In this document: piece after piece, positions 407 through 46,822 of the stretch | Layout: every line of letters starts with the position of its first letter | Numbering within the stretch: the first letter of the stretch is position 1 | Sequence record: NC_049852.1 | DNA from: Escherichia phage egaa | Strand: one strand, 5' to 3' | Length of the DNA stretch: 51,643 nt | The notes under the pieces: generated by a model | Seen by the model: the letters and a program-made list of their open reading frames with translations, nothing else | Databases searched by the model: none | Told to the model about the DNA's origin: nothing | Position numbers and translations under genes: made by a program

Positions 407-585
407 GCTTTATACCTCCTCGTGACTCAGTGACTGCATTATCATTTACCGCCACCTGGTGTGTCAACTGTTTTTTGTTGTTACTGGCGGTTTTCCGATG
501 TTATCTTTTCAGAACATAACAAGATTCGCGTTTTTTTTCTTATAAATCAATGTTGTTTTTGCGTGTTATCTAAAAAAGCGCGGAT

Positions 586-1000: not shown

Positions 1001-1045
1001 AATAGCACTTTTTGTTAAAACTGAATTGCCCTGATCGGGTACATT
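1001..1045 (+). promoter_or_regulatory. conserved 20-bp element AATAGCACTTTTTGTTAAAA + 21-nt spacer + TACATT (-10-like); putative early promoter
   Basis: exact 20-mer at 1001-1020; ATG of downstream gene at 1083; 11-bp inverted repeat ctgatcgggta/tacccatcag encloses the -10. Confidence 0.6.
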
Positions 1046-1082
1046 AGACACATCGAAACGAGATACCCATCAGGAGATAGCA

Positions 1083-1592
1083 ATGAACATCAGCAAAACC
1101 ACTTTCAACTTTGCAAAGCGTCACGGTCTGGATCTGACTGTTGAGGATTTTGGCGATGTTCTGCAACTCTGCATTTGGGAAGCGGATAACGATTGCGAGT
1201 GGCTTTGCTCTTATCGTATCAATTACGATTGCTTAACCTGGCACGACAATATCTATCTGCCGCAAGAAGTGAAAGAGGAATTGCCAGCAACCATCAACAA
1301 CGAAGTTTTTTTTGCGCAAAGTCCTGAAGTTTATTGCCGAGGAGATCAAGAAATGATTAGTGAAGTGGATTTTGAACTTGCAGAGGCCCAGGTAAGGGCC
1401 AAAAAGATGGGGTTGCGGATCTTGACGGAAACAGTCGAGTTCCCGTCGATGCCGTTCGCATCATTCCATAAAGTCACCGTATTAAGTCGCAAACGCGAGT
1501 GTAACGCTCTAATACCTGTCGGTGATGATAAACGCATGGCTAAATTCATTAACGAGTCATGTGATGTTCTGAAGGCTGTTAAACACGGTTAA
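1083..1592 (+). CDS. hypothetical early protein (169 aa)
   Basis: ORF track; RBS caGGAGatagcaATG; downstream of promoter element. Confidence 0.7.
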   Translation: MNISKTTFNFAKRHGLDLTVEDFGDVLQLCIWEADNDCEWLCSYRINYDCLTWHDNIYLPQEVKEELPATINNEVFFAQSPEVYCRGDQEMISEVDFELAEAQVRAKKMGLRILTETVEFPSMPFASFHKVTVLSRKRECNALIPVGDDKRMAKFINESCDVLKAVKHG

Positions 1593-1611
1593 CAACAAAG
1601 GGGAAATAAAG

Positions 1612-1878
1612 ATGGCGCGAATCAATGCACCTATTCCAGTTAAGCGCAAAGCACGTTTGCTCAATAACGGGTGTTACGCCCTGCGGCCTGCATTTAAGGA
1701 TCGCACCTTTCCGGTTATCGTTAACGTGTCGCACGTAAGCCGTAGCGGGAATCTGGCCTTTGTTAACGGTGAGGATCTGTCGGCGCTTGGATTCTATGGC
1801 GGTATTTACGGTGAGGCGCTTGGATTCTGGATTAAAGATCCGTTAACTGGCGAGCGCGAAATCGAATTCCTGGACTAA
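1612..1878 (+). CDS. hypothetical early protein (88 aa)
   Basis: ORF track; RBS gGGGAaataaagATG. Confidence 0.65.
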   Translation: MARINAPIPVKRKARLLNNGCYALRPAFKDRTFPVIVNVSHVSRSGNLAFVNGEDLSALGFYGGIYGEALGFWIKDPLTGEREIEFLD

Positions 1879-1922
1879 ATAGCACTTTTTGTTAAAACTC
1901 AATCCTCGCGATCCGATATATT
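1878..1922 (+). promoter_or_regulatory. conserved 20-bp element + 22-nt spacer + TATATT; putative early promoter
   Basis: aatagcactttttgttaaaa at 1878-1897, TATATT about 1917-1922; 9-bp inverted repeat aatcctcgc/gcgaggatt flanks -10 and overlaps RBS. Confidence 0.6.
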
Positions 1923-1955
1923 ACACACATCGACAACGAATGCGAGGATTTGAAA

Positions 1956-2108
1956 ATGGTTACTCTGATTACCTGGGAACACGAAAACAGCCAGCCGGAA
2001 GTGCGCGAATTTGAAACTGTAGCGGCATGTTATAACCTGGCGAAAAATGGCGGATTCTATAAGGCGCAAATTGTTAACGAATTTGGAGTTGTTGACTATG
2101 AGTTCTAA
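1956..2108 (+). CDS. small hypothetical protein (50 aa), not in ORF track
   Basis: ATG 1956 with RBS GAGGAtttgaaaATG, 58 nt after element; MVTLITWEHENSQPEVREFETVAACYNLAKNGGFYKAQIVNEFGVVDYEF; stop overlaps start of next gene. Confidence 0.5.
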   Translation: MVTLITWEHENSQPEVREFETVAACYNLAKNGGFYKAQIVNEFGVVDYEF

Positions 2109-2388
2109 GTTTTACAGCTATACCGATACAGTGGATTTTGAGGGGATACAATTGCCCCTCCCGAACATATACCGCTATATCACGCGTGACGAACGCGGAT
2201 TTATTGAAGCGTGGCGCTCAAAGCCTGTGCGTGATCTTGAGTTTGGCGGCTTCCGCTCTCTTGAGGGTGAGTTGCCGATCTGCTTCGGTCATCAAAGCGG
2301 TGAAAATCTTCCGGTTGTTGCGCGTCAGTATCGCAGACACAAGATCACAAGGGCACTTATCTCTTTAACTGGATCTGTTGTTGAATAG
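2098..2388 (+). CDS. hypothetical early protein (96 aa; internal ATG of track ORF 2047-2388)
   Basis: Track ORF start at 2047 lies inside upstream ORF; in-frame ATG at 2098 has GGAG 8 nt upstream; TAG stop lies inside next promoter element. Confidence 0.55.
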   Translation: MSSKFYSYTDTVDFEGIQLPLPNIYRYITRDERGFIEAWRSKPVRDLEFGGFRSLEGELPICFGHQSGENLPVVARQYRRHKITRALISLTGSVVE

Positions 2389-2428
2389 CACTTTTTGTTA
2401 AAAACGGTATGCGCCTGAATGGTATATT
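2384..2428 (+). promoter_or_regulatory. conserved 20-bp element + 22-nt spacer + TGgTATATT (extended -10-like)
   Basis: aatagcactttttgttaaaa 2384-2403 containing stop TAG 2386-2388; TATATT 2423-2428. Confidence 0.6.
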
Positions 2429-2459
2429 ACATCCATCGACAACGAACGAGGATTTAAAG

Positions 2460-2654
2460 ATGGAAAATCAAGTTGATGTTAAAGTTGTACAGCGTGAAAC
2501 CACTCACGAGAAAGGAATCTTTAAGAAAGGCGCTATCATCACCATTGATCTTGAGGATATGGTTGCGTATCACTCCGGCCTGACATGGAACGTTGTTAAA
2601 CATGGCAATGCTTTCAAACTGCGTGGATTCAATACTTTTATGGAGGTTGTGTAA
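2460..2654 (+). CDS. hypothetical early protein (64 aa)
   Basis: In-frame ATG (codon 18 of track ORF 2409-2654) with RBS GAGGAtttaaagATG; track start lies inside promoter element. Confidence 0.6.
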   Translation: MENQVDVKVVQRETTHEKGIFKKGAIITIDLEDMVAYHSGLTWNVVKHGNAFKLRGFNTFMEVV

Positions 2655-3037
2655 TGGCCTACACAAACAGCGATTTTAAAAACTCAACTGAAACAATCAA
2701 GGCACAACTCATTAAACAACGCGCTTATAGATTCTGGCTTGATTATCATGATCTAAGGAAAGAGATTGATAATATTATCAAGACTGGTAGCGCGTTCTGT
2801 TCTAACAGGACGGTTTGGCGCAATATGAATGCGCAGTACGGCCATGGAAAAATTCGTGTATTTGGTGAGGCTGTTGAAGCGTATGTGTTTAGCGCAACAA
2901 AAGCTGTAAGTTTTAACGTTGTTGGCATTAATCAGATGAGACTAATAATATTTCATAATTCCTGGATGATTCCCGTTTCTAATGATCATTATGGCGGAGA
3001 CGGAAAGCGAGCAAATCGCCATAGCTATTTCAACTGA
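2654..3037 (+). CDS. hypothetical early protein (127 aa)
   Basis: ORF track; start overlaps upstream stop (gtgtaATGg). Confidence 0.6.
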   Translation: MAYTNSDFKNSTETIKAQLIKQRAYRFWLDYHDLRKEIDNIIKTGSAFCSNRTVWRNMNAQYGHGKIRVFGEAVEAYVFSATKAVSFNVVGINQMRLIIFHNSWMIPVSNDHYGGDGKRANRHSYFN

Positions 3038-3079
3038 TAGCACAAATTGCTAAACAATATTTCTCAAACCTGATATAGT
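3037..3079 (+). promoter_or_regulatory. variant element ATAGCACAAATTGCTAAACA + 21-nt spacer + TATAGT
   Basis: variant of the 20-mer (GAATTG/AAATTG subfamily) directly after TGA stop 3035-3037; ATG of next gene at 3110. Confidence 0.5.
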
Positions 3080-3109
3080 TACCACACCAAATATAATGAG
3101 GATTGCATA

Positions 3110-3337
3110 ATGAAAGCCAAAATCACTAACATCATGCACACTGTTGATGCACATCACCGCGTCGCCATTAAGATGGATAAATCTTGCGGAATCAACCAGT
3201 TAACAATCACGAGCGGTAAAGGTGTGTTTGTTGTTGACTCGCATCCAGGTAGTAAAATCCGCAAATATACGCGCGAAGAATTGATTAAACTTCTTGAAGA
3301 GAACAGCATGTTCATTGAAAGTTGGAAGGCTATCTAA
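3110..3337 (+). CDS. hypothetical early protein (75 aa)
   Basis: ORF track; RBS aatGAGGAttgcataATG. Confidence 0.65.
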   Translation: MKAKITNIMHTVDAHHRVAIKMDKSCGINQLTITSGKGVFVVDSHPGSKIRKYTREELIKLLEENSMFIESWKAI

Positions 3338-3346
3338 TTAATAAAC

Positions 3347-3370
3347 GGGAGGTTTCGCCTCCCTTTAAAT
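3347..3370 (+). terminator. putative intrinsic terminator (GGGAGG-loop-CCTCCC + T/A tract)
   Basis: hairpin gggaggtttcgcctccc followed by tttaaat immediately after stop of 3110-3337. Confidence 0.45.
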
Positions 3371-3383
3371 AAAGGTGATAATA

Positions 3384-3497
3384 ATGACGAAATTTCTTGA
3401 TATTTTATTTGGTGTGATGATGAGCCTTGCTGGTCTTTTAGTTGTCACTGCTGTTATTGCTACTATTCTGATTGTTATCAAGGAGCTTATGAAATGA
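3384..3497 (+). CDS. small hydrophobic membrane peptide (37 aa), not in ORF track
   Basis: ATG 3384 after aaaGGtGAtaataATG; MTKFLDILFGVMMSLAGLLVVTAVIATILIVIKELMK; stop overlaps next start (ATGA). Confidence 0.5.
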   Translation: MTKFLDILFGVMMSLAGLLVVTAVIATILIVIKELMK

Positions 3498-3718
3498 GCC
3501 AGGACGGATTTTTTGAGCGACTGCAAAAAGCGGAAGATGCTGGGCTGAATAAAGAGGCTGCTCTTGAAGTTGCATATAAGATCAGGACACTTGATGATGC
3601 GTTGGGTGAAATGGATATGGAGCATGAATGCGGTGCTGCATTTGCAGATCCAACGATGATTGTTAATGATTGCGGCTGCAATTTTGATCCTAACTGTCCG
3701 CGATGCTTTCCGTTTTGA
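3494..3718 (+). CDS. hypothetical Cys-rich protein (74 aa)
   Basis: ORF track; RBS AGGAGcttatgaaATG; C-terminal CGCNFDPNCPRC. Confidence 0.65.
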   Translation: MSQDGFFERLQKAEDAGLNKEAALEVAYKIRTLDDALGEMDMEHECGAAFADPTMIVNDCGCNFDPNCPRCFPF

Positions 3719-3727
3719 GGTGATGAA

Positions 3728-4438
3728 ATGTATAAGGGTTTAATTTTCTCTTTGTTTGATGGATCTGGTAAAGCCGTTAAAGATTGGGCTGATGCTGGAT
3801 ATAAATGCATTTGCTTTAATTACGATGATGCTGATCACGGTGATTACCACTCAGTGCGCATAATCCATGACAATATCTTTTACGTTAACGCGTGGATTGA
3901 TGATCTATTCAAATATACCGCAAAACTTGAAAATTGGGGTAAGCCTGATTTTATTATGGCGTTCCCTCCATGCACTAACCTTGCAAATAGCGGATCTCGC
4001 CATTGGGCTAAAAAACGCATTGAGAATCCATCGTTCCAGGATGAAGCCGCCGACACTTGCAAAATAGCGGCGCAAATTGCTGATTATTTCGGTGTTCCGT
4101 ACATGATAGAGAATCCTGTAGGCAAGCTGTCAACGCTATGGCGCAAGCCTGATTATACGTTCCATCCGTGCGATTATGCTGGCTATCTGCCGGAAGATGA
4201 TAAACATCCCGACTTTCCTGATATTATTCCGGCACGGGATCGGTACTTTAAGAAAACATGCCTTTGGACTGGAAACGGATTTGTTATTCCTCCGCGCGCA
4301 ACAATCATCCCTAAAGATGGCGACAAGGATAATCCTGGTTGGGCCAAAACTGGCGGAAAATCGTCTCGCACAAAGATGATCCGCTCCCTCACACCGCGCG
4401 GTTTTGCTCGCGCCGTCTTTGAAGCAAACGCAAAATAG
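3728..4438 (+). CDS. putative DNA methyltransferase (cytosine-C5-like motifs)
   Basis: FSLFDGSG (FxGxG AdoMet motif), FPPC (Pro-Cys catalytic motif), MIENPVG (ENV-like); short for a C5-MTase, family call by motif only. Confidence 0.5.
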   Translation: MYKGLIFSLFDGSGKAVKDWADAGYKCICFNYDDADHGDYHSVRIIHDNIFYVNAWIDDLFKYTAKLENWGKPDFIMAFPPCTNLANSGSRHWAKKRIENPSFQDEAADTCKIAAQIADYFGVPYMIENPVGKLSTLWRKPDYTFHPCDYAGYLPEDDKHPDFPDIIPARDRYFKKTCLWTGNGFVIPPRATIIPKDGDKDNPGWAKTGGKSSRTKMIRSLTPRGFARAVFEANAK

Positions 4439-4478
4439 CACTTTTTGTTAAAAGCCAGGTGTAAAAGCCTGGCATAAT
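4434..4478 (+). promoter_or_regulatory. conserved 20-bp element + 22-nt spacer + CATAAT
   Basis: aatagcactttttgttaaaa 4434-4453 with TAG stop 4436-4438 inside; GC hairpin gccagg-tgtaaaa-cctggc in spacer. Confidence 0.6.
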
Positions 4479-4509
4479 CACTTCACCGAAACGAAAGGAG
4501 AAATAAACG

Positions 4510-4896
4510 ATGAAAGTTATCTGCAATAAAACCAACGTTTTGATGAGCGGTCGTTATAAAGCTGTATACGAAAAAATTGCTGGTAGCGATGATGTGATCG
4601 AGTTGGAACAATTCCAGGTAAAGAGCATTACAAAGGGTAGCAAGTGGCAAAACGCTGTTGAGTCTGACTATCGTCATATCAAGACAAAAACAATTAAATG
4701 CACATTTGTAGATCACAAGATCCCGTGCAAAAAGCATTTCAAAGAAGGAAAGCGCTACCAGATTGAGCAAGGGCGCGCGCTTGGTGCTGTTGCTGGTTAT
4801 GTTTTTGATGAAGCTGGCGACCGCTGGACGCTATACCGCGAAGAAGTAGGATTTTCCGCTGGTGGCTGTCATTTATTTGAGGCTATGTATAAGTGA
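4510..4896 (+). CDS. hypothetical early protein (128 aa)
   Basis: ORF track; RBS aaAGGAGaaataaacgATG. Confidence 0.7.
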   Translation: MKVICNKTNVLMSGRYKAVYEKIAGSDDVIELEQFQVKSITKGSKWQNAVESDYRHIKTKTIKCTFVDHKIPCKKHFKEGKRYQIEQGRALGAVAGYVFDEAGDRWTLYREEVGFSAGGCHLFEAMYK

Positions 4897-5114
4897 TCAA
4901 GGCTGAATATCGCTATAAGGTGACTCATTCAGCAACAAAAACCTTCAAGCATGGCGATATAGTCAGGCCAATAAAGAAAACGATGGTTGGATGGCTGATT
5001 GGTCTTTCTTACCACAAATCACTTTATTTTGATTTTGCTGATTCCGTAACCGCGCATTGCCATAGCGCAAGGGAACCAGAAAAAATCTTAGTTAGCATAG
5101 AGCGGATCAAATAG
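4893..5114 (+). CDS. hypothetical early protein (73 aa, GTG start overlapping upstream TGA)
   Basis: ORF track; GTGA overlap; TAG stop inside next element. Confidence 0.5.
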   Translation: MIKAEYRYKVTHSATKTFKHGDIVRPIKKTMVGWLIGLSYHKSLYFDFADSVTAHCHSAREPEKILVSIERIK

Positions 5115-5154
5115 CATTTTTTGTTAAATGCGGGTAGCATTGGTGCGGTATTAT
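5109..5154 (+). promoter_or_regulatory. element variant AATAGCATTTTTTGTTAAAT + 22-nt spacer + TATTAT
   Basis: 5109-5128; hairpin gcggtattattgccgc overlaps -10. Confidence 0.55.
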
Positions 5155-5183
5155 TGCCGCATCAAAAAAAGGAGTTATCATCA

Positions 5184-6767
5184 ATGAATTTTTCGTTTGA
5201 AACCAACAAACTAACACCAAAACAAATTATCGAATTAGCTGATGCACAAGGATTGTCTCCGGTGCGCGTGTCCATTCAGGCAAACGGATACCGTCAATCG
5301 TCCAGCTTTTGGGGTGAGGTTAATGATGTTAATAACGGAAATGATCGCTACCCTGTAATTTCTCTTGGCAATGATGTTGATGTTGTTGGTAAGTTGGCGC
5401 GCAACATTGCTCGCTCAGTTCAGTTCCCTGAATCATCGGCATATATGCATTTTATCGGCTGCGTGTCTGCTGCAATGCTTGGACGCTTCACGGTTGAGTA
5501 TCACGGAACGGATCAGCCGACCGCTCTTTATGTTGTCACAAGCCAGCCTCCTTCAACTGGTAAATCTGCCGTTAACAGCCTGGCACTTGCTCCAATGGTT
5601 GCAGAAGTGGAAAGAATTAACGATCAGCGAAAGAAGGAAAGAAAAAAGATTCAGGCAAAGTTGGCAGGTCTTGCAAAAGAGATGAAAAGCGAGCGCTCCG
5701 GCGCTGATATGGAATCTCTATACCAGGAGAAAGAAGATCTGGAAGAAAAACTGGAAAAGATGTGTGACATTGTTTTCCCTGTGTCCGACACCACGCCGGA
5801 AGGACTTGCAAGAATCAACAATCGCCAGGGTAACTTTGCTGTGATTTCAGACGAGGCAACGAGTATTAACAGCCTTTTAGGTCTGACATATGCTAATAGC
5901 GAACGTAAAACCAACAGCGAACTTGTGCTGAAAGCATGGGATCATGGTCATGTTTCTATAGCTCGTGCAAACGCTGACAACAATATGAGTTTTAAAGCTC
6001 TTGGCTGTATGGCGGTGATTGCCCAGGATGAAACAATCAATGCCATCATGGATGCAGGATCGCGCGGTATCGGTGTGAGTGAGCGTTATTTGCTTGTGCG
6101 TGAGGAATCATTTTTAGGTCGTCGAAAGTTTGTTGATGATAACGGTGATTCTACTTATGAGCCTGTTGATGGAGAACTGAAAAGTCAATATTTTAAGCTG
6201 ATCCATAACATCATGAGTGAATCAAACATCCAGCTTAAGATCAGTAAATCAGCAATGCGAGTTCTTAACATGGCTCGTCAGGAGATGGAGCCGCACCTTG
6301 CTGATGGCGGAAAGTATTCGCATACAATGCTGCGCGGTGCTCTTGGCAAAATGGATAAGCAGGTGATCAGGATTGCTTCGGTTTTGCACACTATCCGCAA
6401 CTGGTTTAATCCTGGTGGATACCCTCAGAAGTCGAAAGAGATTGAAGTTGAAACCGTTCAAGAAGCACTGCTGATGTTTAGCGAGTTGAGCAAAACATAC
6501 ATTAGCGCCGCCAACGCTTCTGGCTATGCTGGTGATGATGCTGAAATGGGTAAACTAATCGAGATTATCACTCGACACGGTAAGGCTAACAAGGGGATCT
6601 TGAATGTTCGCGCCATATATGAGGCTGCACGAAAAGTTAAGCCGTTTGTTGGCCAGGCTGGCGTAATGAAGCGTATGGAAACGCAACTGCTGCCGATGCT
6701 TGAAGAAAGAAATTATATTTGTGTGATTAATGGCGTTGTTTTTGTAAATCCAACATTGCTGGGGTAA
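5184..6767 (+). CDS. P-loop NTPase-like early protein (527 aa)
   Basis: In-frame ATG (codon 22 of track ORF) with RBS aaAGGAGttatcatcaATG; Walker-A-like QPPSTGKSA; coiled-coil KKERKKIQAKLAGLAKEMK; function unknown. Confidence 0.65.
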   Translation: MNFSFETNKLTPKQIIELADAQGLSPVRVSIQANGYRQSSSFWGEVNDVNNGNDRYPVISLGNDVDVVGKLARNIARSVQFPESSAYMHFIGCVSAAMLGRFTVEYHGTDQPTALYVVTSQPPSTGKSAVNSLALAPMVAEVERINDQRKKERKKIQAKLAGLAKEMKSERSGADMESLYQEKEDLEEKLEKMCDIVFPVSDTTPEGLARINNRQGNFAVISDEATSINSLLGLTYANSERKTNSELVLKAWDHGHVSIARANADNNMSFKALGCMAVIAQDETINAIMDAGSRGIGVSERYLLVREESFLGRRKFVDDNGDSTYEPVDGELKSQYFKLIHNIMSESNIQLKISKSAMRVLNMARQEMEPHLADGGKYSHTMLRGALGKMDKQVIRIASVLHTIRNWFNPGGYPQKSKEIEVETVQEALLMFSELSKTYISAANASGYAGDDAEMGKLIEIITRHGKANKGILNVRAIYEAARKVKPFVGQAGVMKRMETQLLPMLEERNYICVINGVVFVNPTLLG

Positions 6768-6769
6768 TT

Positions 6770-7162
6770 ATGTTTCTTCTGGATCTGTATCGCTGGTGTG
6801 AGTCATTCGAATGGTTTACGCGTCAACATATAGCAAAATTTATCTTTCAGCATAGAGAATGTGAGCGGCTCGCAAGGGCCGCAGGATTTACGCCGAGAAT
6901 GTTTGCTACTGCCGTTTCAAAAGAGTTTTGCGCAAGAATGATGACCGCTGGTTATCTTGATGGAGTTGGTGGAAAGTTCTGGTGTAAGAAAGGATCCGCA
7001 AATCGCCCTTTCTCGTTTGAACTTTACAGCCTGGAAGGTATGCAAAACGAATGGGTTAGGGATGTTTTACGGATCGGAGAAATGAGCGATGAAGAACTGT
7101 TTACGTCAAATGCTAATAGACAAAATATTGAAGTTCTGCGCCGTAAGTTCAATCTCACATGA
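6770..7162 (+). CDS. hypothetical early protein (130 aa)
   Basis: ORF track; start 3 nt after upstream stop. Confidence 0.6.
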   Translation: MFLLDLYRWCESFEWFTRQHIAKFIFQHRECERLARAAGFTPRMFATAVSKEFCARMMTAGYLDGVGGKFWCKKGSANRPFSFELYSLEGMQNEWVRDVLRIGEMSDEELFTSNANRQNIEVLRRKFNLT

Positions 7163-7283
7163 AGACTTCATGCACGCAATGTTAACGCTAATTCATTCTG
7201 ACATGCGAGCGTTTAACATATCAGAGCATAATTTGTGTGATGAGGACGGCGTTTTGTTGGTTACTGTAAAGCGTATCGAATAG
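7089..7283 (+). CDS. possible overlapping small ORF (64 aa) ending inside promoter element
   Basis: ORF track; overlaps 6770-7162 by 74 nt; GGAG 10 nt upstream; its TAG is the TAG of the next element; true start uncertain. Confidence 0.3.
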   Translation: MKNCLRQMLIDKILKFCAVSSISHEDFMHAMLTLIHSDMRAFNISEHNLCDEDGVLLVTVKRIE

Positions 7284-7323
7284 CACTTTTTGTTAAAACT
7301 CCCGATCTCGTATCGGGTATATT
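7279..7323 (+). promoter_or_regulatory. conserved 20-bp element + 22-nt spacer + TATATT
   Basis: aatagcactttttgttaaaa 7279-7298; hairpin cccgat-ctcgt-atcggg in spacer. Confidence 0.6.
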
Positions 7324-7356
7324 TGTTTCATCGGAACGAATATGAGGATTTTAAAA

Positions 7357-7578
7357 ATGGCTATCAAAGTAACAAAGAAAGAGACAAAAATCATCAATGT
7401 AACTTTTGATGTTTTCAACGACAAAGGAACTGCGACAAGAGAAGATGGCAGCACGTTTGAAATAAATCGTTACGAATACAATGAAATGTTATGGGATATA
7501 AAGAAGAAAGGTGCTTACATTCTTGTCGAGAATGATTATAGCGGAAACAGCTTTCAAGATTTGATGGATGCACTATAA
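7357..7578 (+). CDS. hypothetical early protein (73 aa)
   Basis: In-frame ATG (codon 6 of track ORF 7342-7578) with RBS GAGGAttttaaaaATG. Confidence 0.6.
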   Translation: MAIKVTKKETKIINVTFDVFNDKGTATREDGSTFEINRYEYNEMLWDIKKKGAYILVENDYSGNSFQDLMDAL

Positions 7579-10300: not shown

Positions 10301-10469
10301 GCTTATAATATGCCTCCGCAAATGCTAATGGGTAGTGACCATATGCTACGCGAAGTAGAATCATTGCAGCACCCCAATCAAGATGCATATTGTTTTTCGT
10401 TCCGCCTTTTACCGCCTCGCGTGCGGTTTGTTGTGCCTGATCAAATGCTTTTTTGCTGTATACTACCAT
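10290..10469 (-). CDS. small hypothetical protein (59 aa), not in ORF track
   Basis: ATG 10469 with RBS GAGGAaataaaaATG, 58 nt downstream of promoter element; MVVYSKKAFDQAQQTAREAVKGG... Confidence 0.5.
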   Translation of the reverse strand: MVVYSKKAFDQAQQTAREAVKGGTKNNMHLDWGAAMILLRVAYGHYPLAFAEAYYKHEG

Positions 10470-10500
10470 TTTTATTTCCTCATGTTCGTTTCGATAAAAT

Positions 10501-10546
10501 AATTATGCCCGACACAAGGCCGGGCGTTTTAACAAAAAGTGCTATT
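10501..10546 (-). promoter_or_regulatory. conserved 20-bp element (minus orientation) + 23-nt spacer + ATAATT
   Basis: rc of 10527-10546 = aatagcactttttgttaaaa; contains TAG stop of 10542-10781; hairpin gcccggc-cttgtgt-cgggc in spacer; leader CGAAACGAA...GAGGA. Confidence 0.6.
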
Positions 10547-10785: not shown

Positions 10786-11487
10786 TTAACTCCGCTTTCT
10801 TGCTCGACGCTCTGCCACCGAAGGGCAAATGTCGCTGATTTTAACGTATCGCGTTTTCTGCTGCTCACCTTCTTTAAGTTCTCGCATGATGAAAATAACG
10901 CTGCCTTTGTTGTTGCCCTGCACTGGTTTACCTGTAAGCGCGGAAGTAAACGCCAGGCGTCCGGTGCGGGAATATTCTGTTCCGTCCTCCTGGTAAACTT
11001 CTCCAGTGATCCAGATGATTTCCGCTGCGCGCTGTTGCGCTTCATAAAACCATCCTGTTGATGTGTCGCAAGGTAACAGTATGTCGATCTGGTTGTTGTG
11101 CTCCATTTGCTCAATCGCCTTCTTAACAAATGGAGTAATATTGCTGTACGGTGGATTAAGCCAGATATGCTTATTACTACCCCACCAACGCTTTAAGCAA
11201 TTTGTTTCCTTGCTGTAGAATTTTTCACATACAGCATTTTCTTTGCTCGCCGCCGCGTCGATGTCATAATCACCGTATTCGCTTTCCATCCATTCGACAA
11301 GCTCAGACGGAGTAGACCACAAATCGCGCACAATGTCCGGCGTATTGCTGCCGTTATAGCGGTTGCCAGTCACTTTGAAATATTGATTTGGTTTAACAGC
11401 CTGGTAATGACCACCAGTAGCAAGAGCATTGCCAATGAATGTTTCGCGTTCTATTTGTTCAAATGTCACTTCGGTTTCTTTGCTCAT
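10786..11487 (-). CDS. dam: DNA N6-adenine methyltransferase (phage Dam-like)
   Basis: NPPY catalytic motif (WLNPPYSNITPF) of amino-MTases; position next to nuclease/helicase as in T1-like phages. Confidence 0.8.
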   Translation of the reverse strand: MSKETEVTFEQIERETFIGNALATGGHYQAVKPNQYFKVTGNRYNGSNTPDIVRDLWSTPSELVEWMESEYGDYDIDAAASKENAVCEKFYSKETNCLKRWWGSNKHIWLNPPYSNITPFVKKAIEQMEHNNQIDILLPCDTSTGWFYEAQQRAAEIIWITGEVYQEDGTEYSRTGRLAFTSALTGKPVQGNNKGSVIFIMRELKEGEQQKTRYVKISDICPSVAERRARKRS

Positions 11488-11520
11488 TTCTTAATTACCT
11501 GTTGCTTGTTGAACTGGTGT

Positions 11521-11566
11521 TATTATGGCGCAATCCTTCGCGCCTGTTTTAACAAAAAGTGCTATT
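11521..11566 (-). promoter_or_regulatory. conserved 20-bp element (minus) + 23-nt spacer + ATAATA
   Basis: rc of 11547-11566 exact 20-mer incl. TAG stop of VRR-NUC gene; hairpin ggcgc-gaaggatt-gcgcc; ATG of dam 60 nt downstream. Confidence 0.6.
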
Positions 11567-11981: not shown

Positions 11982-14007
11982 AATTAAATTCCTTCTTGTA
12001 CAAATTATCTTCTCCCTTGCTAGTCTTGCGGTGAGTCACGCGCGATGGTGGCATGATGTGATTCACATATTGCATTATTTTTCGTGCATTACGATAGCTC
12101 GCCACCATGCCAGCAACGCGGCGATCTGGTATGTGCTTAAGAGCAACGCCTCGCCATTTTGCGCGGCAAATTTGGCTTTCAGATTCAGGGAAAAATATCT
12201 CTCTCGCCCTAAAAGTGTCTGCGCCATCGTAAAGCTCATAATTAAATATTATCCCTTTCTGGTTTTTCGTCATGTCAACAGAGAAAGATTGCACCTTGAA
12301 CCAGTCGTTTTTTGTGTAGTGCTTTCCGCTCAACTTCTCGTTAGGGTCAATCAATGACATGTCGCAATGTCTGCATACCCTGGCCGCAATATCATTTTTC
12401 GTTCCACAACCGCGCTGAATAATCTTTTTAGTGCGCGGGTCAATCTGATCATCACATGTCCTGAATTTAAAGAACCACTCGCATCTGTTGCCGTTTTCGT
12501 CTACGTGCATACAACGACGAGCATAATAGCTATTAAGAGTTCCGCAAACAGGACAAGGCTTCGGATCTTTACCGTTCCTGAATCGCTTCTGATGTTGCGC
12601 CTGTTCCAGTATCGGATCAAAATAAAGCTCACCTAACTCGTCCATCGTTCCTGAAAAATCCATAACCAGGTGATCATCTTTCTTGAAGCCTTGTTCCTTA
12701 TGCCATTTCTTAAGAAGTCGCATTCCGCGTCCTAAAAGCTGAATCAGCAAAGTTAGCGATCCAATCTTACGCAGAATAACAGACGTATCCCAAAACGGCA
12801 CGTTAACGCCAGTAGTTAGCGCCTGAACCTGGAAGATGTACTTTACCTTCCCTTCGTATGCTTCCCTCAACCACTCCTTGCGCTGGTTGTCGCCAGTCTT
12901 ACCAGTAATGATCCTGTAAGTCGTTCCAGGTGGCAATGCCGCCGCTGCCTCTTTGCAATGCCTTTCTCCTGCACATGTCACAAGTACGCCGTTACGGTTT
13001 TTACAGATCTCGTGAACTTTCGCCATGATGCGCTTTGTCATGGTCGCTTCTTCATGAATTTTTTGTTCCATCCTGCGAAGCGTTTTAGCGTCAAAGTCTG
13101 CGACGCCATCCTCGCTGGATGCCTCAAACTCTGAAAGGTCATACCCTAGATCGCCAACGTCGCCAAAATTTGTTGGCACAACAGAACCGAATTTGATCAG
13201 GTAGTTGGTGTCAATATTAGTAACCTGTTCACGCCAGAATCCTTTCTGTTTTTTGTCTTCTACCAGGATCGGGACTACTCCGCGAAACTCCGAACCAGTC
13301 ATACCAAAGATGCGCAGTTCATGACCATATGCTTTCCTGCAACGTCGCATCATTTCCATGATAATAACAGTGTATTGCGTGCGGCCTGTTCCCTCCATTG
13401 GTAAGCCATCCTCACCAATCATGAACTCTTCGCATTCGTTATCGCTCGTTATGTCATAATATGGATTTGGTACTTTTTCGCCTTTCTTCGTTGTCATTTG
13501 TAAAAATGATTCGTCTTTCTCTATTGCGTCGGCAAGGTCTTCCCAATCCACCTGGTGACATTCATCAATCCCGATAACGTGAGGAACATAGTCGCCAAGC
13601 GCTTTAAACAGTCCATTAACTACAGTTCCCTCAGAACCAACAACGATCGGAAAGTATGCGCTTTTTGTCTTCAGTCCTGCACAATAGATGGAGTTCGGCA
13701 CACCAAGATTTGTTATCTCTTCAGAATCCTGATCCACAATCTCAGCCTGGCGAGCAAGGACCATCATTTTCAAGCCCATTTTACGGCACTGGTGAGCAAC
13801 CATTGCAAACATCAATGTTTTGCCAGCCGATACGGACGCTTTAACAAAGAATGGGTGCTCATAATTTTTCATACGCTTTGCGATCTCAGCGTATGCAACG
13901 CACTGGTAAGGGTAAGGCACAATCTCGCCAACAGTGAATCGCTCCTGAATGGATTTAATTACCGCTTCACCAAGTGCTGATATTTGTTTTTCAATGTTTG
14001 GAATCAT
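11968..14007 (-). CDS. SF2 DEAD/DExH-box helicase with C-terminal zinc ribbon
   Basis: Walker A SVSAGKTLM, DECH box (GIDECHQV), C-terminal CPVCG...CRHCD; start moved to in-frame ATG 14007 (codon 23; aaAGGttttagaATG) because track start is TTG inside the promoter element. Confidence 0.8.
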   Translation of the reverse strand: MIPNIEKQISALGEAVIKSIQERFTVGEIVPYPYQCVAYAEIAKRMKNYEHPFFVKASVSAGKTLMFAMVAHQCRKMGLKMMVLARQAEIVDQDSEEITNLGVPNSIYCAGLKTKSAYFPIVVGSEGTVVNGLFKALGDYVPHVIGIDECHQVDWEDLADAIEKDESFLQMTTKKGEKVPNPYYDITSDNECEEFMIGEDGLPMEGTGRTQYTVIIMEMMRRCRKAYGHELRIFGMTGSEFRGVVPILVEDKKQKGFWREQVTNIDTNYLIKFGSVVPTNFGDVGDLGYDLSEFEASSEDGVADFDAKTLRRMEQKIHEEATMTKRIMAKVHEICKNRNGVLVTCAGERHCKEAAAALPPGTTYRIITGKTGDNQRKEWLREAYEGKVKYIFQVQALTTGVNVPFWDTSVILRKIGSLTLLIQLLGRGMRLLKKWHKEQGFKKDDHLVMDFSGTMDELGELYFDPILEQAQHQKRFRNGKDPKPCPVCGTLNSYYARRCMHVDENGNRCEWFFKFRTCDDQIDPRTKKIIQRGCGTKNDIAARVCRHCDMSLIDPNEKLSGKHYTKNDWFKVQSFSVDMTKNQKGIIFNYELYDGADTFRAREIFFPESESQICRAKWRGVALKHIPDRRVAGMVASYRNARKIMQYVNHIMPPSRVTHRKTSKGEDNLYKKEFNYGND

Positions 14008-14040
14008 TCTAAAACCTTTGAGTAATGCCATTTGGCGTGT

Positions 14041-14084
14041 ATAATACACAATCATTAAATCATCGTTTAACAAAAAATGCTATT
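14041..14084 (-). promoter_or_regulatory. element variant (minus) AATAGCATTTTTTGTTAAA + 21-nt spacer + TATTAT; overlaps a plus-strand TATAAT
   Basis: rc of 14066-14084; minus -10 TATTAT = rc of 14041-14046, plus TATAAT at 14039-14044: back-to-back divergent promoters for helicase and 14097 gene. Confidence 0.5.
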
Positions 14085-14096: not shown

Positions 14097-14570
14097 ATGA
14101 AAGAGCAACGAATCGCAGTATCAACAGGCAAGATTGACAAGCGCACAATTAATGGCAATAACGGAACAAGACGAGGCAAGGATAAGAAGAAGCGCAAGCG
14201 ACCGACAGGTTATTATGTTCTAAAAGATGAGGTGCGTGCCGGGCTAAAAGCGCGACTTGATATCCTTATTGAGTATTACGGAAGTGTATCAGCAATGGCA
14301 AAACGTCTTAACGTTAGCCAGCAAACTGTAAATCAGTGGCGCGTTCGCGGTATGATTTCAGCCGCTGGCGCTCAAAAGGTGCATAACGATTACAAAAAAT
14401 ATGGCTGCCAAGGCTATCGCGCGTCATTCTGCCGTCCAGATCTGCGATTTGATTCCAATGGTAAACCTCTCACAAAGAGATGTGATAAGCGTGAAATGTT
14501 GCGAGTGGTAAGAATGTCAGATTATGAACCTGGCGGATTCCTGTATAAACCTGAAAGCACTAATTGCTAA
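14097..14570 (+). CDS. HTH DNA-binding protein (XRE/Cro-like helix-turn-helix)
   Basis: SVSAMAKRLNVSQQTVNQWRVRGMIS helix-turn-helix; basic N-terminus; RBS GGAGaatgaataATG. Confidence 0.6.
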   Translation: MKEQRIAVSTGKIDKRTINGNNGTRRGKDKKKRKRPTGYYVLKDEVRAGLKARLDILIEYYGSVSAMAKRLNVSQQTVNQWRVRGMISAAGAQKVHNDYKKYGCQGYRASFCRPDLRFDSNGKPLTKRCDKREMLRVVRMSDYEPGGFLYKPESTNC

Positions 14571-14624
14571 AAACAATGCCTGGCATGATGTTATCATCTG
14601 TCAGGCTTTTTGTTTGAGGTGTAT

Positions 14625-15557
14625 ATGAATAACGAAAACTTTATGGTTTATCAAAAGGAAGATGTTCTCCCATATATGCAAGGATTGTGGCGTGAGGCGC
14701 TACAAAGTATTTGCGGTCTTCCAAATGAAGTTTTTAACGGCAAGCATCAATCTTGCCCCCACTGCGGCGGAAAGGATCGCTTCAGATGGACGGATAAACT
14801 TGGCGATAAAAAAGGCGATGGCGGTGCGATCTGCAACGTGTGCGGTAATGATACCGGAATTGGTTGGATCATGAAGCTAACCGGAGAACCTTACAGCGAA
14901 GTGATCAATATTTTGGGCCGTTTTCTTGGAAAAGTTCCGCAGGACTATAGAATAAAGGCAAATAAGCGAGTATCTCGTGATTCTGGTTATTCGTTTGGGA
15001 AACAGGCAAGCCATGAATGCTGCGAGCGCGTTATGTCAAAAACACTAAAATTTGATCGCACGCCGTTAAGCACATATGAAGGAATATACCCGCCTGAAGA
15101 TGGTCATTATGATTGCGGCGTAAAAGATGGTCGATACATTCACGCGTTACCATGTTACCTTGTGCATTCAGATGATATTGATGATGAAATGTGCAATGTG
15201 CTTTTCATTGATGAAGAAGGTAAACAGTCTTTTCTAGCAAAGGACTACACGCGCGGGTCGATTGTGAGAACAGGAAGCACAGATAAGACGATCTATCTTT
15301 GCGTTGACTGGATTGATGCGCAACATATTCACCTTGCAACTGGACAAGAGGTTTGGGCCTGTTTTGATGCAACTAACATTGAGATTGTGGCTTACAGGTA
15401 TAAAGGCAACAGAAGAATGCGAGTTGTCTGTAAGAGCACAGATCGTGACGCTATCATAGCTGCCGAGGAAAGAGGTCTTGAAATTATGATTCCGATTAAT
15501 GATAATTACAGGAAAGGGATAGAGAGGAAGGTTTACAAACCTGAATCTCTTCTCTAA
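14625..15557 (+). CDS. DNA primase (T7 gp4-like zinc ribbon)
   Basis: CPHCGGKDRFRW...CNVCGND zinc ribbon typical of phage primase N-termini; in-frame ATG at codon 6 with GAGGTG upstream (track start TTG). Confidence 0.7.
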   Translation: MNNENFMVYQKEDVLPYMQGLWREALQSICGLPNEVFNGKHQSCPHCGGKDRFRWTDKLGDKKGDGGAICNVCGNDTGIGWIMKLTGEPYSEVINILGRFLGKVPQDYRIKANKRVSRDSGYSFGKQASHECCERVMSKTLKFDRTPLSTYEGIYPPEDGHYDCGVKDGRYIHALPCYLVHSDDIDDEMCNVLFIDEEGKQSFLAKDYTRGSIVRTGSTDKTIYLCVDWIDAQHIHLATGQEVWACFDATNIEIVAYRYKGNRRMRVVCKSTDRDAIIAAEERGLEIMIPINDNYRKGIERKVYKPESLL

Positions 15558-21199: not shown

Positions 21200-21481
21200 T
21201 TAATGCTTTGTTTCTTCTTTAGTGTGTAATTTAATCAGATTTTCCATCATGCGATCAGAAATTTCTTTTACCGCCTTGATTGCTTCCTCGTTGTCTTCGC
21301 TCATTGTTGCAACAAGTACGACGTTATCGACTGCATCCATTACCTTTCTGATGTACTGCATTTCTTCTTCGCCTGCTGTTGGGTCAAGCGGCGCTACAAA
21401 GTCACGAAGCAACGTAGCCATTCCAGTTGCAAAATTATTGATGTGAACTGCTACCGCTGATACTTGTTTATTGTTTTCCAT
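21200..21481 (-). CDS. hypothetical protein (93 aa)
   Basis: ORF track. Confidence 0.55.
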   Translation of the reverse strand: MENNKQVSAVAVHINNFATGMATLLRDFVAPLDPTAGEEEMQYIRKVMDAVDNVVLVATMSEDNEEAIKAVKEISDRMMENLIKLHTKEETKH

Positions 21482-21562
21482 ATTTATTTCCTCACGTTTA
21501 CTGTTAACTTGTGCGGTGAATTATAACACCGCATTTTTCATTTGTTTAGCTATTTGTGCTGT

Positions 21563-23049: not shown

Positions 23050-23093
23050 GAATAGCACTTTTTGCTAAACGACCGCCGCAAGATCGTGTATAG
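23050..23093 (+). promoter_or_regulatory. element variant AATAGCACTTTTTGCTAAAC + 22-nt spacer + TATAGT
   Basis: 57 nt upstream of lipoprotein gene ATG. Confidence 0.55.
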
Positions 23094-23125
23094 TTGCAAC
23101 CAACAACAACTAAGGAGATACCAAG

Positions 23126-23353
23126 ATGAAAAAATTAATCGCCGTTTTGATTGCAGCCGCAACCCTGACTGGTTGCGCAAATATGCCTAAGCGTGAATGC
23201 ACGGCTATTTATGAAAATAGCGGTATGCAGTATTCAGTTGCTATTTTTGGAGTAAAACGAGTTGGCGACCGCACTCTTGTTAAGGCTGGCTATCCGTTTA
23301 ATTTTCAGTGGGTAAGTATTGATAACTTTAAAAACGCTGATTGCAGTATGTAA
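23126..23353 (+). CDS. Llp/Cor-like superinfection-exclusion lipoprotein (putative receptor blocker)
   Basis: Lipoprotein signal MKKLIAVLIAAATLTGC; mature part PKRECTAIYE...VKRVGDRTLV...C resembles, from memory, T5 Llp (FhuA-blocking); single plus gene with own promoter and terminator next to tail tip genes. Confidence 0.6.
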   Translation: MKKLIAVLIAAATLTGCANMPKRECTAIYENSGMQYSVAIFGVKRVGDRTLVKAGYPFNFQWVSIDNFKNADCSM

Positions 23354-33718: not shown

Positions 33719-33737
33719 ATAGCACTTTTTGTTAAAA
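33719..33737 (+). promoter_or_regulatory. copy of conserved element (ATAGCACTTTTTGTTAAAA) in inverted orientation relative to surrounding late genes
   Basis: plus-strand copy inside minus-strand late operon, 14-32 nt upstream of the G gene start on the opposite strand. Confidence 0.4.
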
Positions 33738-33775
33738 GAATTGATTATGAATCGTGTAGCATGATTGTACAGTAA

Positions 33776-45654: not shown

Positions 45655-45863
45655 TCTTCTACTACCTCGCATTCGTCATGGTTTACGCCGATGTTATCAC
45701 CGATTCGAATTTCTTCTGTGTTGCGGATTGCTAACACGCAGTAAGAACCATCGCGAAAGAATCCGTCAACCTCTACAATGTCACCAACTTTGAACCCGCA
45801 TTGTTCAAGGGTAATGCTTCCGTCGTTGCGGTCAATGTCAACCCTGGTAATTCGAATTTTCAC
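45651..45863 (-). CDS. hypothetical protein (70 aa, GTG start)
   Basis: ORF track; RBS aGAGGAaataaaaGTG; 58 nt downstream of promoter element. Confidence 0.55.
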   Translation of the reverse strand: MKIRITRVDIDRNDGSITLEQCGFKVGDIVEVDGFFRDGSYCVLAIRNTEEIRIGDNIGVNHDECEVVEE

Positions 45864-45894
45864 TTTTATTTCCTCTGTTTCGCTTCAATGAGGA

Positions 45895-45940
45895 CACTTT
45901 AACAAATGCCCTCGCGGAAGTTTTAACAAAAAGTGCTATT
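45895..45940 (-). promoter_or_regulatory. conserved 20-bp element (minus orientation); -10 not clearly assignable
   Basis: rc of 45921-45940 = aatagcactttttgttaaaa overlapping the stop of 45939-46226. Confidence 0.5.
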
Positions 45941-46226
45941 AGCTCATGTAATAGATTTCATCGCGCACAAAATCGTCAAAATCAGATTGCGTTAATGGTC
46001 GATCCTCTAATGCTGCCTGCTCAATCATTTCAACCAGGGCGCAATCCATATCAAGGTAATGCGCATCAAGATCATACCATGAAGCCATTTCACGCGCCCA
46101 GGAGCGGCAATTCTTGAATCCGTAACGGCGGATACAGTTTGCTGTGTGAAATGAGTCATTCCAGCCACGCTCAAGCGCTGCCTTTTCGAATGCGTTAATC
46201 AACATTTTACGATTGCTTTTAGCCAT
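45939..46226 (-). CDS. hypothetical protein (95 aa)
   Basis: In-frame ATG (codon 9 of track ORF) with RBS aAAGGAGGaaacaaaATG. Confidence 0.6.
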   Translation of the reverse strand: MAKSNRKMLINAFEKAALERGWNDSFHTANCIRRYGFKNCRSWAREMASWYDLDAHYLDMDCALVEMIEQAALEDRPLTQSDFDDFVRDEIYYMS

Positions 46227-46269
46227 TTTGTTTCCTCCTTTTAGCGCCACCTGAGCGGCGCGGTTAACA

Positions 46270-46449
46270 TTACTTCTTTTTTCCGGTCAGCATGTAACGC
46301 TTTCCGTTTTCGAATCCATCACAATAGCCAGCATACCCGCCAGCCATGAAGATAATCAACCCGCCGATTGACTCAACAATGCCGCTATAATTATATGCCA
46401 GGTAGCAACCAGCGATAAGGGCAATAAAAATGATAATTACTCTTTTCAT
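46270..46449 (-). CDS. small membrane protein (59 aa)
   Basis: In-frame ATG (codon 8) overlapping upstream stop (ATGA); hydrophobic VIIIFIALIAGCYLAY and GGLIIFMAGGYAGY segments. Confidence 0.55.
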   Translation of the reverse strand: MKRVIIIFIALIAGCYLAYNYSGIVESIGGLIIFMAGGYAGYCDGFENGKRYMLTGKKK

Positions 46450-46709: not shown

Positions 46710-46822
46710 ATTGCGGCCCTCACTGAATAAACAACTAAGAGAATCAAGAATAACACAATCATTATTTCATGAAAATCAAATGGCGGCTTTGGATTGGTTG
46801 CGTTGTTGTTATTTCCCAGCAT
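46691..46822 (-). CDS. possible small membrane protein (43 aa)
   Basis: In-frame ATG (codon 32) of track ORF 46691-46915, chosen to avoid overlap with 46809-47210; hydrophobic C-terminus IMIVLFLILLVVYSV; weak RBS. Confidence 0.3.
   Translation of the reverse strand: MLGNNNNATNPKPPFDFHEIMIVLFLILLVVYSVRAAIWFLMH

Follow-up and report, generated by a model that had tools for sequence, protein, structure and literature searches.

Early-gene cassettes of Escherichia phage egaa and other T1-like phages appear to be built around a class II marbox

The marbox has been defined by the Grainger laboratory as the non-palindromic, oriented sequence 5'-gcannwwntgnnaaa-3' (PMC12052159). In class II marbox promoters, the box is oriented forward and overlaps the –35 region, and no –35 element can be recognized (PMC12052159, PMC10268841). 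On the micF promoter, RamA is located at about –41 (PMC8811837), and cryo-electron microscopy of the Rob-RNA polymerase-micF complex revealed a 20-bp box with an A site, GCAC, at –47 to –44 and a B site, CAAA, overlapping the –35 region; Rob keeps region 4 of sigma70 off the –35 position while contacting both region 4 and an alpha C-terminal domain (PMC9178005). A repeated element has been described separately in phage TLS, where a 21-nt direct repeat, aaATAGCACnnnTTGnTAAAA, occurs between genes at 21 places in the orientation of transcription, was also noted in T1, Rtp and Rogue1, and contrasts with just three sigma70-like promoters found during re-annotation; a stoperator, an enhancer-binding site or an UP element were suggested, and its function was left open (German, Misra, Kropinski et al. 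2024, PMC11447400). Here, we analyze the same element in a sister genus, in the genome of Escherichia phage egaa (NC_049852.1; 51,643 nt, referred to as the window in its whole length). By its sequence, the element is a near-perfect copy of the marbox, placed as in host MarA/SoxS/Rob promoters. The repeat itself is already published and its identity as a marbox is newly assigned here: the TLS paper draws no link to the marbox, to a fixed –10 register or to stem-loops, and our literature search on the marbox or SoxS in combination with phages or Drexlerviridae yielded no paper joining marbox, SoxS or Rob to these phages.

Bases 1–8000 of the window are 93–99% identical to members of the genus Hanrivervirus (Drexlerviridae, T1-like), namely Shigella phage pSf-1 and the Escherichia phages herni, G29-2 and damhaus. 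Small early genes form two divergent arms; one of them is the region 1001–7323, for which the original prediction described seven copies of a conserved 20-bp element. All seven are present. The 20-mer AATAGCACTTTTTGTTAAAA starts without mismatch at 1001, 1878, 2384, 4434 and 7279; the variant copy assigned to 3037 is GATAGCACAAATTGCTAAAC with its start at 3036, and the copy given as 5109 exists with 2 mismatches but starts at 5110. In the following, cassettes are numbered from the marbox, which begins 1 nt 3' of the 20-mer start (for example, 1002 instead of 1001). Allowing up to 3 mismatches, the window contains 17 matches to the 20-mer, compared with 0.02 expected from shuffled sequences. 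Since about 20 copies with complete cassette geometry occur on both strands, spread over the entire Hanrivervirus genome, the element is not restricted to 1001–7323. Conversely, its proposed position before nearly every rightward early gene turned out to be overstated, because only 7 of about 16 plus-strand genes in 1001–7600 lie directly behind a cassette; the others are located downstream in short operons. The box has the general form ATAGCAC-NNN-TTG-(C/T)-TAAAA-N, with a variable central triplet (TTT, GAA, AAA or TAA), and the T-variant (TGTTA) is the most frequent form in the window.

A motif search over related T1-like genomes recovered the element together with the same downstream –10 region in T1 (Tunavirinae), TLS (Tempevirinae), Rtp (Braunvirinae) and Vibrio phage Vc1 (Jhansiroadvirus). 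All 20 cassettes of the window face the downstream start codon, and the same orientation is found in these four phages. The box is unchanged across Tunavirinae, Tempevirinae, Braunvirinae and Jhansiroadvirus, while the phage proteins have diverged to 45–64% identity. Scanning 2.9 million IMG/VR contigs with the strict pattern ATAGCAC-N3-TTG-N-TAAAA-N19-TATAAT returned 53 stretches, all of them Drexlerviridae-related (T1-like) according to tblastx. A search of the window against Rfam gave no family match at any position. Twenty GenBank records labelled “Campylobacter phage”, with Campylobacter jejuni as host (MG065673, MG065687, MG065640 and MG065641 among them), share ~89% identity over 8 kb with this genome; these records are probably coliphage contaminants or carry mislabelled hosts.

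The box sequences GCACTTTTTGTTAAA, GCACGAATTGCTAAA, GCACTTTTTGCTAAA and GCACAAATTGCTAAA all fit the definition gcannwwntgnnaaa perfectly. Perfect matches to it occur 21 times in the window, 20 times in T1, 19 times in TLS, 14 times in Rtp and 12 times in Vc1, compared with a single one in phage lambda and about 1–2 in shuffled sequences (1.6 for the window). The 20-bp marbox form reportedly given by Martin et al. in 1999, AYnGCACnnWnnRYYAAAYn, matches the window 21 times with at most 1 mismatch, where 1.7 matches are expected. We also derived a matrix from 73 MarA/SoxS/Rob/RamA sites of Salmonella mapped by chromatin immunoprecipitation sequencing (ChIP-seq; PMC10268841). Its optimum, GCACAAATTGCTAAA, is identical to the phage variant at 3037, and the other phage variants reach scores of 16.0–18.1 out of a maximum of 18.1, exceeding 86–100% of the ChIP sites; micF scores 13.9. 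Sites near-identical to the phage boxes are found among the ChIP-derived ones, including GCACTTTTTGCAAAA, GCATTTTTTGCTAAA and GCACTGATTGTTAAA (PMC10268841).

Two other identities were tried and rejected. GCAC and TTGC resemble the –24/–12 elements of a sigma54 promoter (TGGCAC-N5-TTGC, with GG and GC 10 bp apart and a start about 12 bp downstream). This identity does not fit, as the corresponding element, AGCAC-N3-TTGC, is 2 bases short, carries an A in place of the first G and lacks the GG, and a conserved –10 hexamer follows 20 nt further on. The consensus sequences of IHF, Fis, CRP, DnaA, OxyR, Lrp and ArcA, compared by eye and suitable as leads only, did not fit either.

The seven cassettes of the rightward arm are composed as follows (start sites are predictions):

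Cassette 1, 1002..1085, plus strand: marbox 1002-1021 (ATAGCACTTTTTGTTAAAAC); –10 TACATT 1040-1045; predicted +1 A at 1052 (CATCGAAACGA); Shine-Dalgarno site AGGAG 1072-1076; ATG 1083; weak spacer stem-loop, –8.7 kcal/mol, z –2.0.
Cassette 2, 1879..1958, plus strand: marbox 1879-1898; –10 TATATT 1917-1922; predicted +1 1929; GAGGA; ATG 1956; TAA stop of the preceding gene at 1876-1878; stem-loop not found.
Cassette 3, 2385..2462, plus strand: marbox 2385-2404; –10 TATATT 2423-2428; predicted +1 2435; ATG 2460; amber TAG of the preceding gene at 2386-2388, within the box.
Cassette 4 (variant), 3037..3112, plus strand: marbox 3037-3056 (ATAGCACAAATTGCTAAACA), its 15-mer GCACAAATTGCTAAA being the ChIP-derived matrix optimum; spacing one base less; –10 TATAGT 3074-3079; predicted +1 3086; ATG 3110.
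Cassette 5, 4435..4512, plus strand: marbox 4435-4454; –10 CATAAT 4473-4478; predicted +1 4485; ATG 4510; stem-loop 4454-4473 (GCCAGGT/GCCTGGC) occupying the spacer, –13.7 kcal/mol, z –4.8; amber stop of a Dcm-like methylase gene at 4436-4438.
Cassette 6, 5111..5186, plus strand: marbox 5111-5130 (GCAT variant); –10 TATTAT 5149-5154; predicted +1 5161; ATG 5184 of a helicase-like gene; stem-loop 5142-5163 around the –10, –15.4 kcal/mol, z –3.9.
Cassette 7, 7280..7359, plus strand: marbox 7280-7299; –10 TATATT 7318-7323; predicted +1 7330; GAGGA; ATG 7357; stem-loop 7301-7317 (CCCGAT/ATCGGG) followed by the T-rich TATATTTGTT, called terminator-like.

A –10-like hexamer follows every copy, as proposed (in order TACATT, TATATT, TATATT, TATAGT, CATAAT, TATTAT, TATATT). 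Its distance from the end of the 20-mer is 19 nt, or 18 nt for the 3037 variant, and not 21–23 nt; the figure of 22 bp is valid only if counted from TTGTTA. Among 84 copies from the window, T1, TLS and Rtp, 60 have exactly the same distance between box and hexamer and 70 agree to within 1 nt, and this constancy supports a promoter-type cassette with fixed geometry. In these 60 copies, the 15-mer ends 20 nt before the –10, the hexamer begins 35 nt downstream of the G of GCAC, and the register is exactly that of micF, where the 15-mer GCACTGAATGTCAAA (MG1655) is likewise separated by 20 nt from the –10 TAGAAT and the G of GCAC is again 35 nt upstream. The 20-bp marbox ends 18 bp from the –10, and the micF box ACAGCACTGAATGTCAAAAC and the phage box ATAGCACTTTTTGTTAAAAC are alike at 15 of 20 positions. 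In sequence, the cassettes show these features of class II marbox promoters: the box matches the consensus, is oriented forward and overlaps the –35 position (center at about –36 to –55 in this class), its distance from the –10 is fixed, and a –35 hexamer is lacking.

From 70 exact-spacing cassettes of five phages, we obtained the consensus aAATAGCACtttTTG.TAAAAc-N13-t..G.TATaaT...c.cAtcgaaa..aaa, in which GCAC, TG and AAA are the most conserved box positions. A conserved G stands two bases ahead of the hexamer, at –14. The conserved leader noticed earlier in the rightward arm is borne out by this larger set as c.cA(+1)tcgaaa..aaa. The conserved C(–1)A(+1) with the start region TCGAAACGA precedes a Shine-Dalgarno site and the start codon, and the predicted first transcribed base is the conserved A of C-A-TCGAAACGA, 7 nt past the hexamer. 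Start codons follow 23–32 nt past this predicted site, behind a C/A-rich leader; relative to the 20-mer, they lie 53–62 nt downstream (about 56–62 nt in the original prediction). The earlier observation that the stop codon of the preceding gene often falls within or against the box holds for 14 of 20 cassettes, and in 9 of them this stop is the amber TAG of ATAGCAC. Counted from the –10 and the predicted start site, the box covers about –50 to –31, over the –35 position, with GCAC at –47 to –44.

The TTG is located 22 bp from the –10, too far for a sigma70 –35 element, as the original prediction argued for this distance, and no –35 is present at 16–18 bp, where the 70-cassette consensus shows no conserved bases except the AAAA of the box. 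A standard sigma70 scan of bases 1–8000 found 15 promoter-like sites compared with 17.2 in shuffles, and the cassettes were not called. The element had been taken for an UP-element-like A/T tract, which, alone or with a displaced –35, would be read by the alpha subunits and sigma70 without any activator. T5 and A4 tracts do lie on either side of TG, the –10 hexamers are good and accompanied by the G at –14, and T1-like phages grow well without stress inducers. However, conservation peaks at GCAC, TG and AAA and not at A/T as such, with a central triplet that varies; the element, at –50 to –31, overlaps the –35 position, whereas UP elements are found at –60 to –40; and a TTG-to–10 distance of 22 bp is outside the sigma70 range. 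We consider the UP-element explanation very improbable.

The rigid register also bears on the stoperator analogy raised in the TLS paper, according to which the repeats would be repressor or roadblock sites or, alternatively, decoys titrating host MarA, SoxS or Rob. A few boxes indeed lie downstream of candidate promoters or face late genes (in the 5' untranslated region of the regulator gene described below, at 33719 and at 37479), and twenty optimal boxes multiplied by the genome copy number would make a strong sink. But roadblocks are disfavored because the identical –10 register in 60 of 84 copies, the invariably forward orientation and the position upstream of the predicted start site are what activation, not a roadblock, would need; this explanation is highly improbable. 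The late-gene-opposing boxes form a small set of their own:

33719..33762, plus strand: antisense-pointing box with class II geometry; –10 TAGCAT; between the major tail and tail-chaperone genes; same place in T1.

This box would yield an antisense RNA, and on the strand of the late genes it borders on the chaperone gene's ribosome-binding site. A second conserved place is 37479-37498 (plus strand), just upstream of the major capsid gene; elsewhere, such boxes occur in T1 at 18850 and 15086, in TLS at 15042 and in Vc1 at 5727, all on the minus strand. They may act as antisense promoters or as roadblocks, or be sites in reverse orientation (class I-like).

Based on this match in sequence and register, the cassettes probably represent class II promoters served by a host activator of the MarA/SoxS/Rob type, and about 20 phage genes appear to be started through an activator that serves the host in antibiotic and stress responses. 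Each copy would be the compact head of a transcription unit organized around such a promoter. One monomer of the AraC-family proteins MarA, SoxS or Rob (RamA in Klebsiella and Salmonella) would bind the box, with GCAC as recognition element 1 and (C/T)TAAA as recognition element 2, and hold RNA polymerase via sigma70 region 4 and an alpha C-terminal domain. If the structures solved for Rob and SoxS on micF are taken as a guide, the bound activator would substitute for the contact between the –35 and sigma region 4, and because it replaces this contact, the 22-bp gap would not be a –35/–10 spacer at all. The activator may be a host protein present at the time of infection, and Rob is the constitutively expressed member of the family (PMC10268841, PMC9178005). 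A host protein is the most likely candidate, since no phage homologue is detectable and boxes precede the outermost early genes. A conserved host factor is further favored by the invariance of the box across subfamilies, together with an almost exclusively enterobacterial host range: the recorded hosts of phages with a linked regulator gene are almost all Enterobacteriaceae, and marA, soxS and rob commonly have homologues in this family (PMC10268841). The wider claim that essentially the whole early and middle programme of the Drexlerviridae, a family of virulent phages, at about 20 promoters per genome, would be wired to host MarA, SoxS and Rob (or RamA) through optimal class II marboxes is put forward only tentatively.

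Several points weigh against a host activator. T1-like phages grow fast in plain broth. The C-variant box contains the dyad TAGCA-N5-TGCTA, which a dimeric phage protein could read, and a phage activator devoid of detectable AraC similarity is conceivable. Unstressed cells contain little MarA or SoxS, and their Rob is mostly sequestered (PMC10268841, PMC9178005). Finally, a screen of the Keio collection with the T1-like phage LL5 recovered lipopolysaccharide-core genes, tolC, ppiB and secB, and not rob, marA or soxS (PMC7229145), so that no single one of these three genes is indispensable. Redundancy between them, or adequate basal activity from a good –10 with G at –14, may explain this result.

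The alternative of a phage-encoded factor, already contained in the original prediction, was addressed by several searches. With MarA and SoxS as queries, tblastn against five Drexlerviridae genomes gave a best E-value of 0.38, for the DUF7174 gene. No AraC-type helix-turn-helix was found by Pfam in 21 unassigned open reading frames of at least 83 aa, comprising the DUF7174 protein and 20 others. The AlphaFold model of the DUF7174 protein, with a mean predicted local distance difference test (pLDDT) score of 76, had no MarA/Rob-like structural match. A phage-encoded MarA-like protein was rejected on the strength of the tblastn and Pfam results. With an optimal host marbox in the micF register and no AraC/MarA-like phage protein found by these searches, a phage-encoded reader is not the best candidate. 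The genes and promoters concerned are:

438..467, minus strand: sigma70 promoter TTGACA-18-GATAAT, the sole near-consensus one in 1–8000, in contrast to the cassettes.
From 406, minus strand, leaving the window at its left end: DUF7174 gene, the first gene of the minus-strand arm; 155 aa with the ends joined.
14018-14045, plus strand: sigma70 promoter of the regulator gene, TTGAGT-16-TATAAT, near-consensus; the 5' untranslated region crosses box 14064-14083.
14097-14570, plus strand: Cro/YdaS-like helix-turn-helix regulator gene, 157 aa, homologue of T1 gp23; the sole annotated regulator.

The DUF7174 gene is the only gene in 1–8000 with a near-consensus sigma70 promoter. The N-terminal 90 residues of its modelled product (pLDDT 83–90) are arranged as helix-strand-helix-helix-strand-strand, a winged-helix-like order for which no confident structural match was obtained.

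In this alternative, the Cro-like regulator, or an unrecognized early protein, would bind the box at about –41 as a class II activator, and the likeness to the marbox would reflect convergence or mimicry. The regulator is conserved family-wide, its near-consensus sigma70 promoter and the box crossed by its 5' untranslated region would permit autoregulation, the half-sites of the C-variant dyad are one helical turn apart, and the absence of a rob, marA or soxS requirement in the Keio screen would be expected. Nevertheless, the predicted recognition helix changes between the window, T1, TLS and Rtp (SQQTVNQW, SNQTVQGW, NLKTVWGW, TPQAVEEW) while the box stays identical. The dyad is present in C-variants and broken in T-variants (TGTTA), the commonest form in the window, and its GCA...TGC belongs to the host marbox consensus anyway. 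No AraC-type phage protein was found by the above searches, and the host matrix optimum combined with the micF register would be a coincidence without explanation. A phage activator is unlikely. The narrower idea of a dimeric operator for the Cro-like regulator, with the dyad centered at –42, was downgraded for the same reasons: the helix is not conserved, the T-variant breaks the dyad, and GCA...TG is already part of the marbox. As a separate observation, the regulator and helicase genes are divergent and their –10 regions overlap back to back on opposite strands (TATAAT/TATTAT, 14040-14046); this layout of 14007-14100 would allow a switch between the two genes.

Besides box and –10, about two thirds of the cassettes carry a stem-loop between the box and the predicted start. 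In 48 of 74 cassettes, it is more stable than shuffled sequences with z < –2 (mean z –2.7), while the stems differ in sequence among cassettes. Some stems extend through the spacer as far as the first base of the –10 (4454-4473, 7301-7317). Others bracket the –10, with the hexamer in the loop and the discriminator as the 3' arm (5142-5163, and many in T1 and TLS). Of the two strands, the sense strand gives the more stable fold in 46 cassettes and the antisense strand in 11 (p = 5e-7), and G.U pairs account for 66 of 568 pairs. Because the sense fold is systematically more stable and uses G.U pairs, these results suggest that the stem-loop is selected at the RNA level. For the same reasons, we rejected a DNA cruciform or pre-melted –10 as an explanation of the bracketing hairpins. 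An antisense terminator (hairpin plus TTTTAAC on the opposite strand) was rejected as well: it is terminator-like at two cassettes only and fails where the stem is far from the box.

Further cassettes of the window are:

10469..10545, minus strand: marbox 10545-10526; –10 CATAAT 10507-10502; predicted +1 10495; ATG 10469; spacer stem-loop 10525-10507.
11487..11565, minus strand, ahead of the Dam methylase gene: marbox 11565-11546; stem-loop; –10 CATAAT 11527-11522.
14007..14083, minus strand, ahead of the superfamily 2 (SF2) helicase gene: marbox 14083-14064 (GCAT variant); –10 TATTAT 14046-14041.
14554..14627, plus strand, ahead of the primase gene: box 14554-14573 (AAAGCACTAATTGCTAAAAA) within the regulator gene, at its 3' end; –10 TATCAT 14592-14597 in the loop of a T-tract stem-loop (GCCTGGCA...TGTCAGGC TTTTTGTTT), –16.9 kcal/mol, z –6.2.
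21481..21562, minus strand, recombination module: 2-mismatch box ACAGCACAAATAGCTAAAC; –10 TATAAT 21525-21520 within a stem-loop.
23052..23128, plus strand, ahead of the cor-like gene: marbox 23052-23071; –10 TATAGT 23089-23094; ATG 23126.
45863..51322, minus strand, six cassettes of the other early arm: box starts 45939, 47285, 48587, 49804, 50859 and 51322; –10 regions 45901-45896, 47247-47242, 48549-48544, 49767-49762, 50821-50816 and 51284-51279.

A degenerate box, ATAGCACGAATCGACAAAC, is found at 41754-41737 (minus strand) in the 3' end of the large-terminase gene, with no –10 at class II distance and a strong terminator behind it; it is probably a decayed or non-functional copy.

A T-rich tract stands behind the stem at 7301-7317, 10525-10507 and 14580-14612 (before the primase gene), which were called terminators by a simple scan or by earlier annotators, and a hairpin homologous to that of cassette 5 is an annotated terminator in phage G29-2. 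Since the transcripts of a cassette would themselves start in or after the 3' arm, only read-through RNA from upstream would contain the stem-loop. We infer that it may function as a terminator or as the 3' hairpin of the preceding gene, from which the next promoter would escape by initiating inside it.

The cassettes of the window also coincide with differences in gene content between close relatives, as seen in an indel comparison with four of them. In damhaus, the boxes at 1878 and 2384 of the window align to one box; in EC147, those at 1001 and 2384 do so, and three modules are absent. The deletion in JakobBernoulli begins inside box 7279, and in damhaus and EC147 the gene behind this cassette is replaced from 7340, just ahead of its start codon. 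The repeat of ~80 bp may thus serve as a substrate for homologous recombination by which gene modules are added or removed. The promoter early stem-loop (PeSL) elements of T4-type phages are small composite terminator/promoter elements before many early genes of uncharacterized role, and indels between close relatives end there (PMC2839356, PMC4122927). The analogy to PeSLs drawn in the original prediction is apt, because the indel pattern of the cassettes matches that described for these elements, and the stem-loops are statistically real. Could the cassettes then mainly be recombination modules, kept for gene shuffling, whose sequence has no specific regulatory meaning? The indel end-points in damhaus, EC147 and JakobBernoulli would fit, but homology alone suffices for recombination, which leaves the host-site match and the fixed –10 register over, and conservation across subfamilies with different flanking genes is not accounted for. 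It is more plausible that gene shuffling results from the repeats, and we regard this explanation as barely credible. One indel lies apart from the cassettes: pSf-1 carries an HNH endonuclease gene (7065-7577) between the helicase gene and the next gene, where none is present in the window (6767-6769), and this looks like the insertion of a homing endonuclease.

Between the divergent early arms, we also noticed a 580-bp non-coding region in which positions 499-955 contain about 11 ATAACA/TGTTAT hexamers, including four direct repeats at 782, 791, 800 and 810, 9–10 bp apart, and a C/A-rich stretch almost without G at ~590-700. This region could be iteron-like or regulator-binding, an origin, or related to packaging.

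A class II marbox would account for early transcription, for the absent –35 and for the constancy of the element between subfamilies together. If host activators are indeed used at these boxes, early phage expression would increase with bile salts, salicylate, redox stress or antibiotics, and the replicating DNA, with 20 optimal boxes on each of hundreds of genome copies, would titrate the regulators from host efflux and porin genes. Phage susceptibility would then be tied directly, at the molecular level, to the antibiotic-resistance regulon. T1-like phages are frequent in sewage and the gut and form part of therapy cocktails, and coupling of their early expression to the efflux-resistance regulon would bear on phage-antibiotic synergy and on their behavior in bile. 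Synthetic biology could also use the boxes as they are, as very strong promoters responsive to MarA, SoxS and Rob. A design in which terminator and promoter are interleaved, with a part in gene shuffling, would widen the PeSL idea past T4-type phages.

Compared with known systems, the cassettes resemble most directly micF and the other class II promoters of MarA, SoxS and Rob (or RamA), such as lpxC P2, lpxL P1 and rfaY P1. They have in common a 20-bp asymmetric GCAC/YYAAA box in forward orientation over the –35, the lack of a –35 hexamer and a sigma70 –10; in micF and the phages alike, the box is 18 bp from this –10. In contrast, hardly any host site comes as near to the consensus optimum as the phage boxes, which number about 20 in the 50 kb of a virulent phage and are fused to the stop codon of the preceding gene, a stem-loop and a conserved leader. 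With the T4 PeSLs, they share a layout: both are small promoter-terminator units repeated before many early genes. In the phage cassette, however, the promoter consists of an activator box and a –10, and the stem-loop is located inside it, in the spacer or around the –10, and not beside it. T4 middle promoters are similar as a phage-wide promoter class in which an upstream box next to a –10 replaces the –35. Their MotA box is centered at –30, read by a phage protein and dependent on sigma70 remodelled by AsiA, whereas the box of the window is centered at about –41 and matches the site of a host factor, and homologues of MotA or AsiA were not seen. A further parallel is provided by lambda PRM with cI at OR2, an activator site centered near –42 that abuts or overlaps the –35 region, with a contact to sigma70 region 4. 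There, cI binds as a dimer to a symmetric operator and PRM keeps a –35 hexamer, while the box of the window is asymmetric and oriented and has no –35. What is new, judged from the sequence, is where a member of a known promoter class unexpectedly turns up, with its optimal class II marbox joined to a stem-loop and to a conserved leader.

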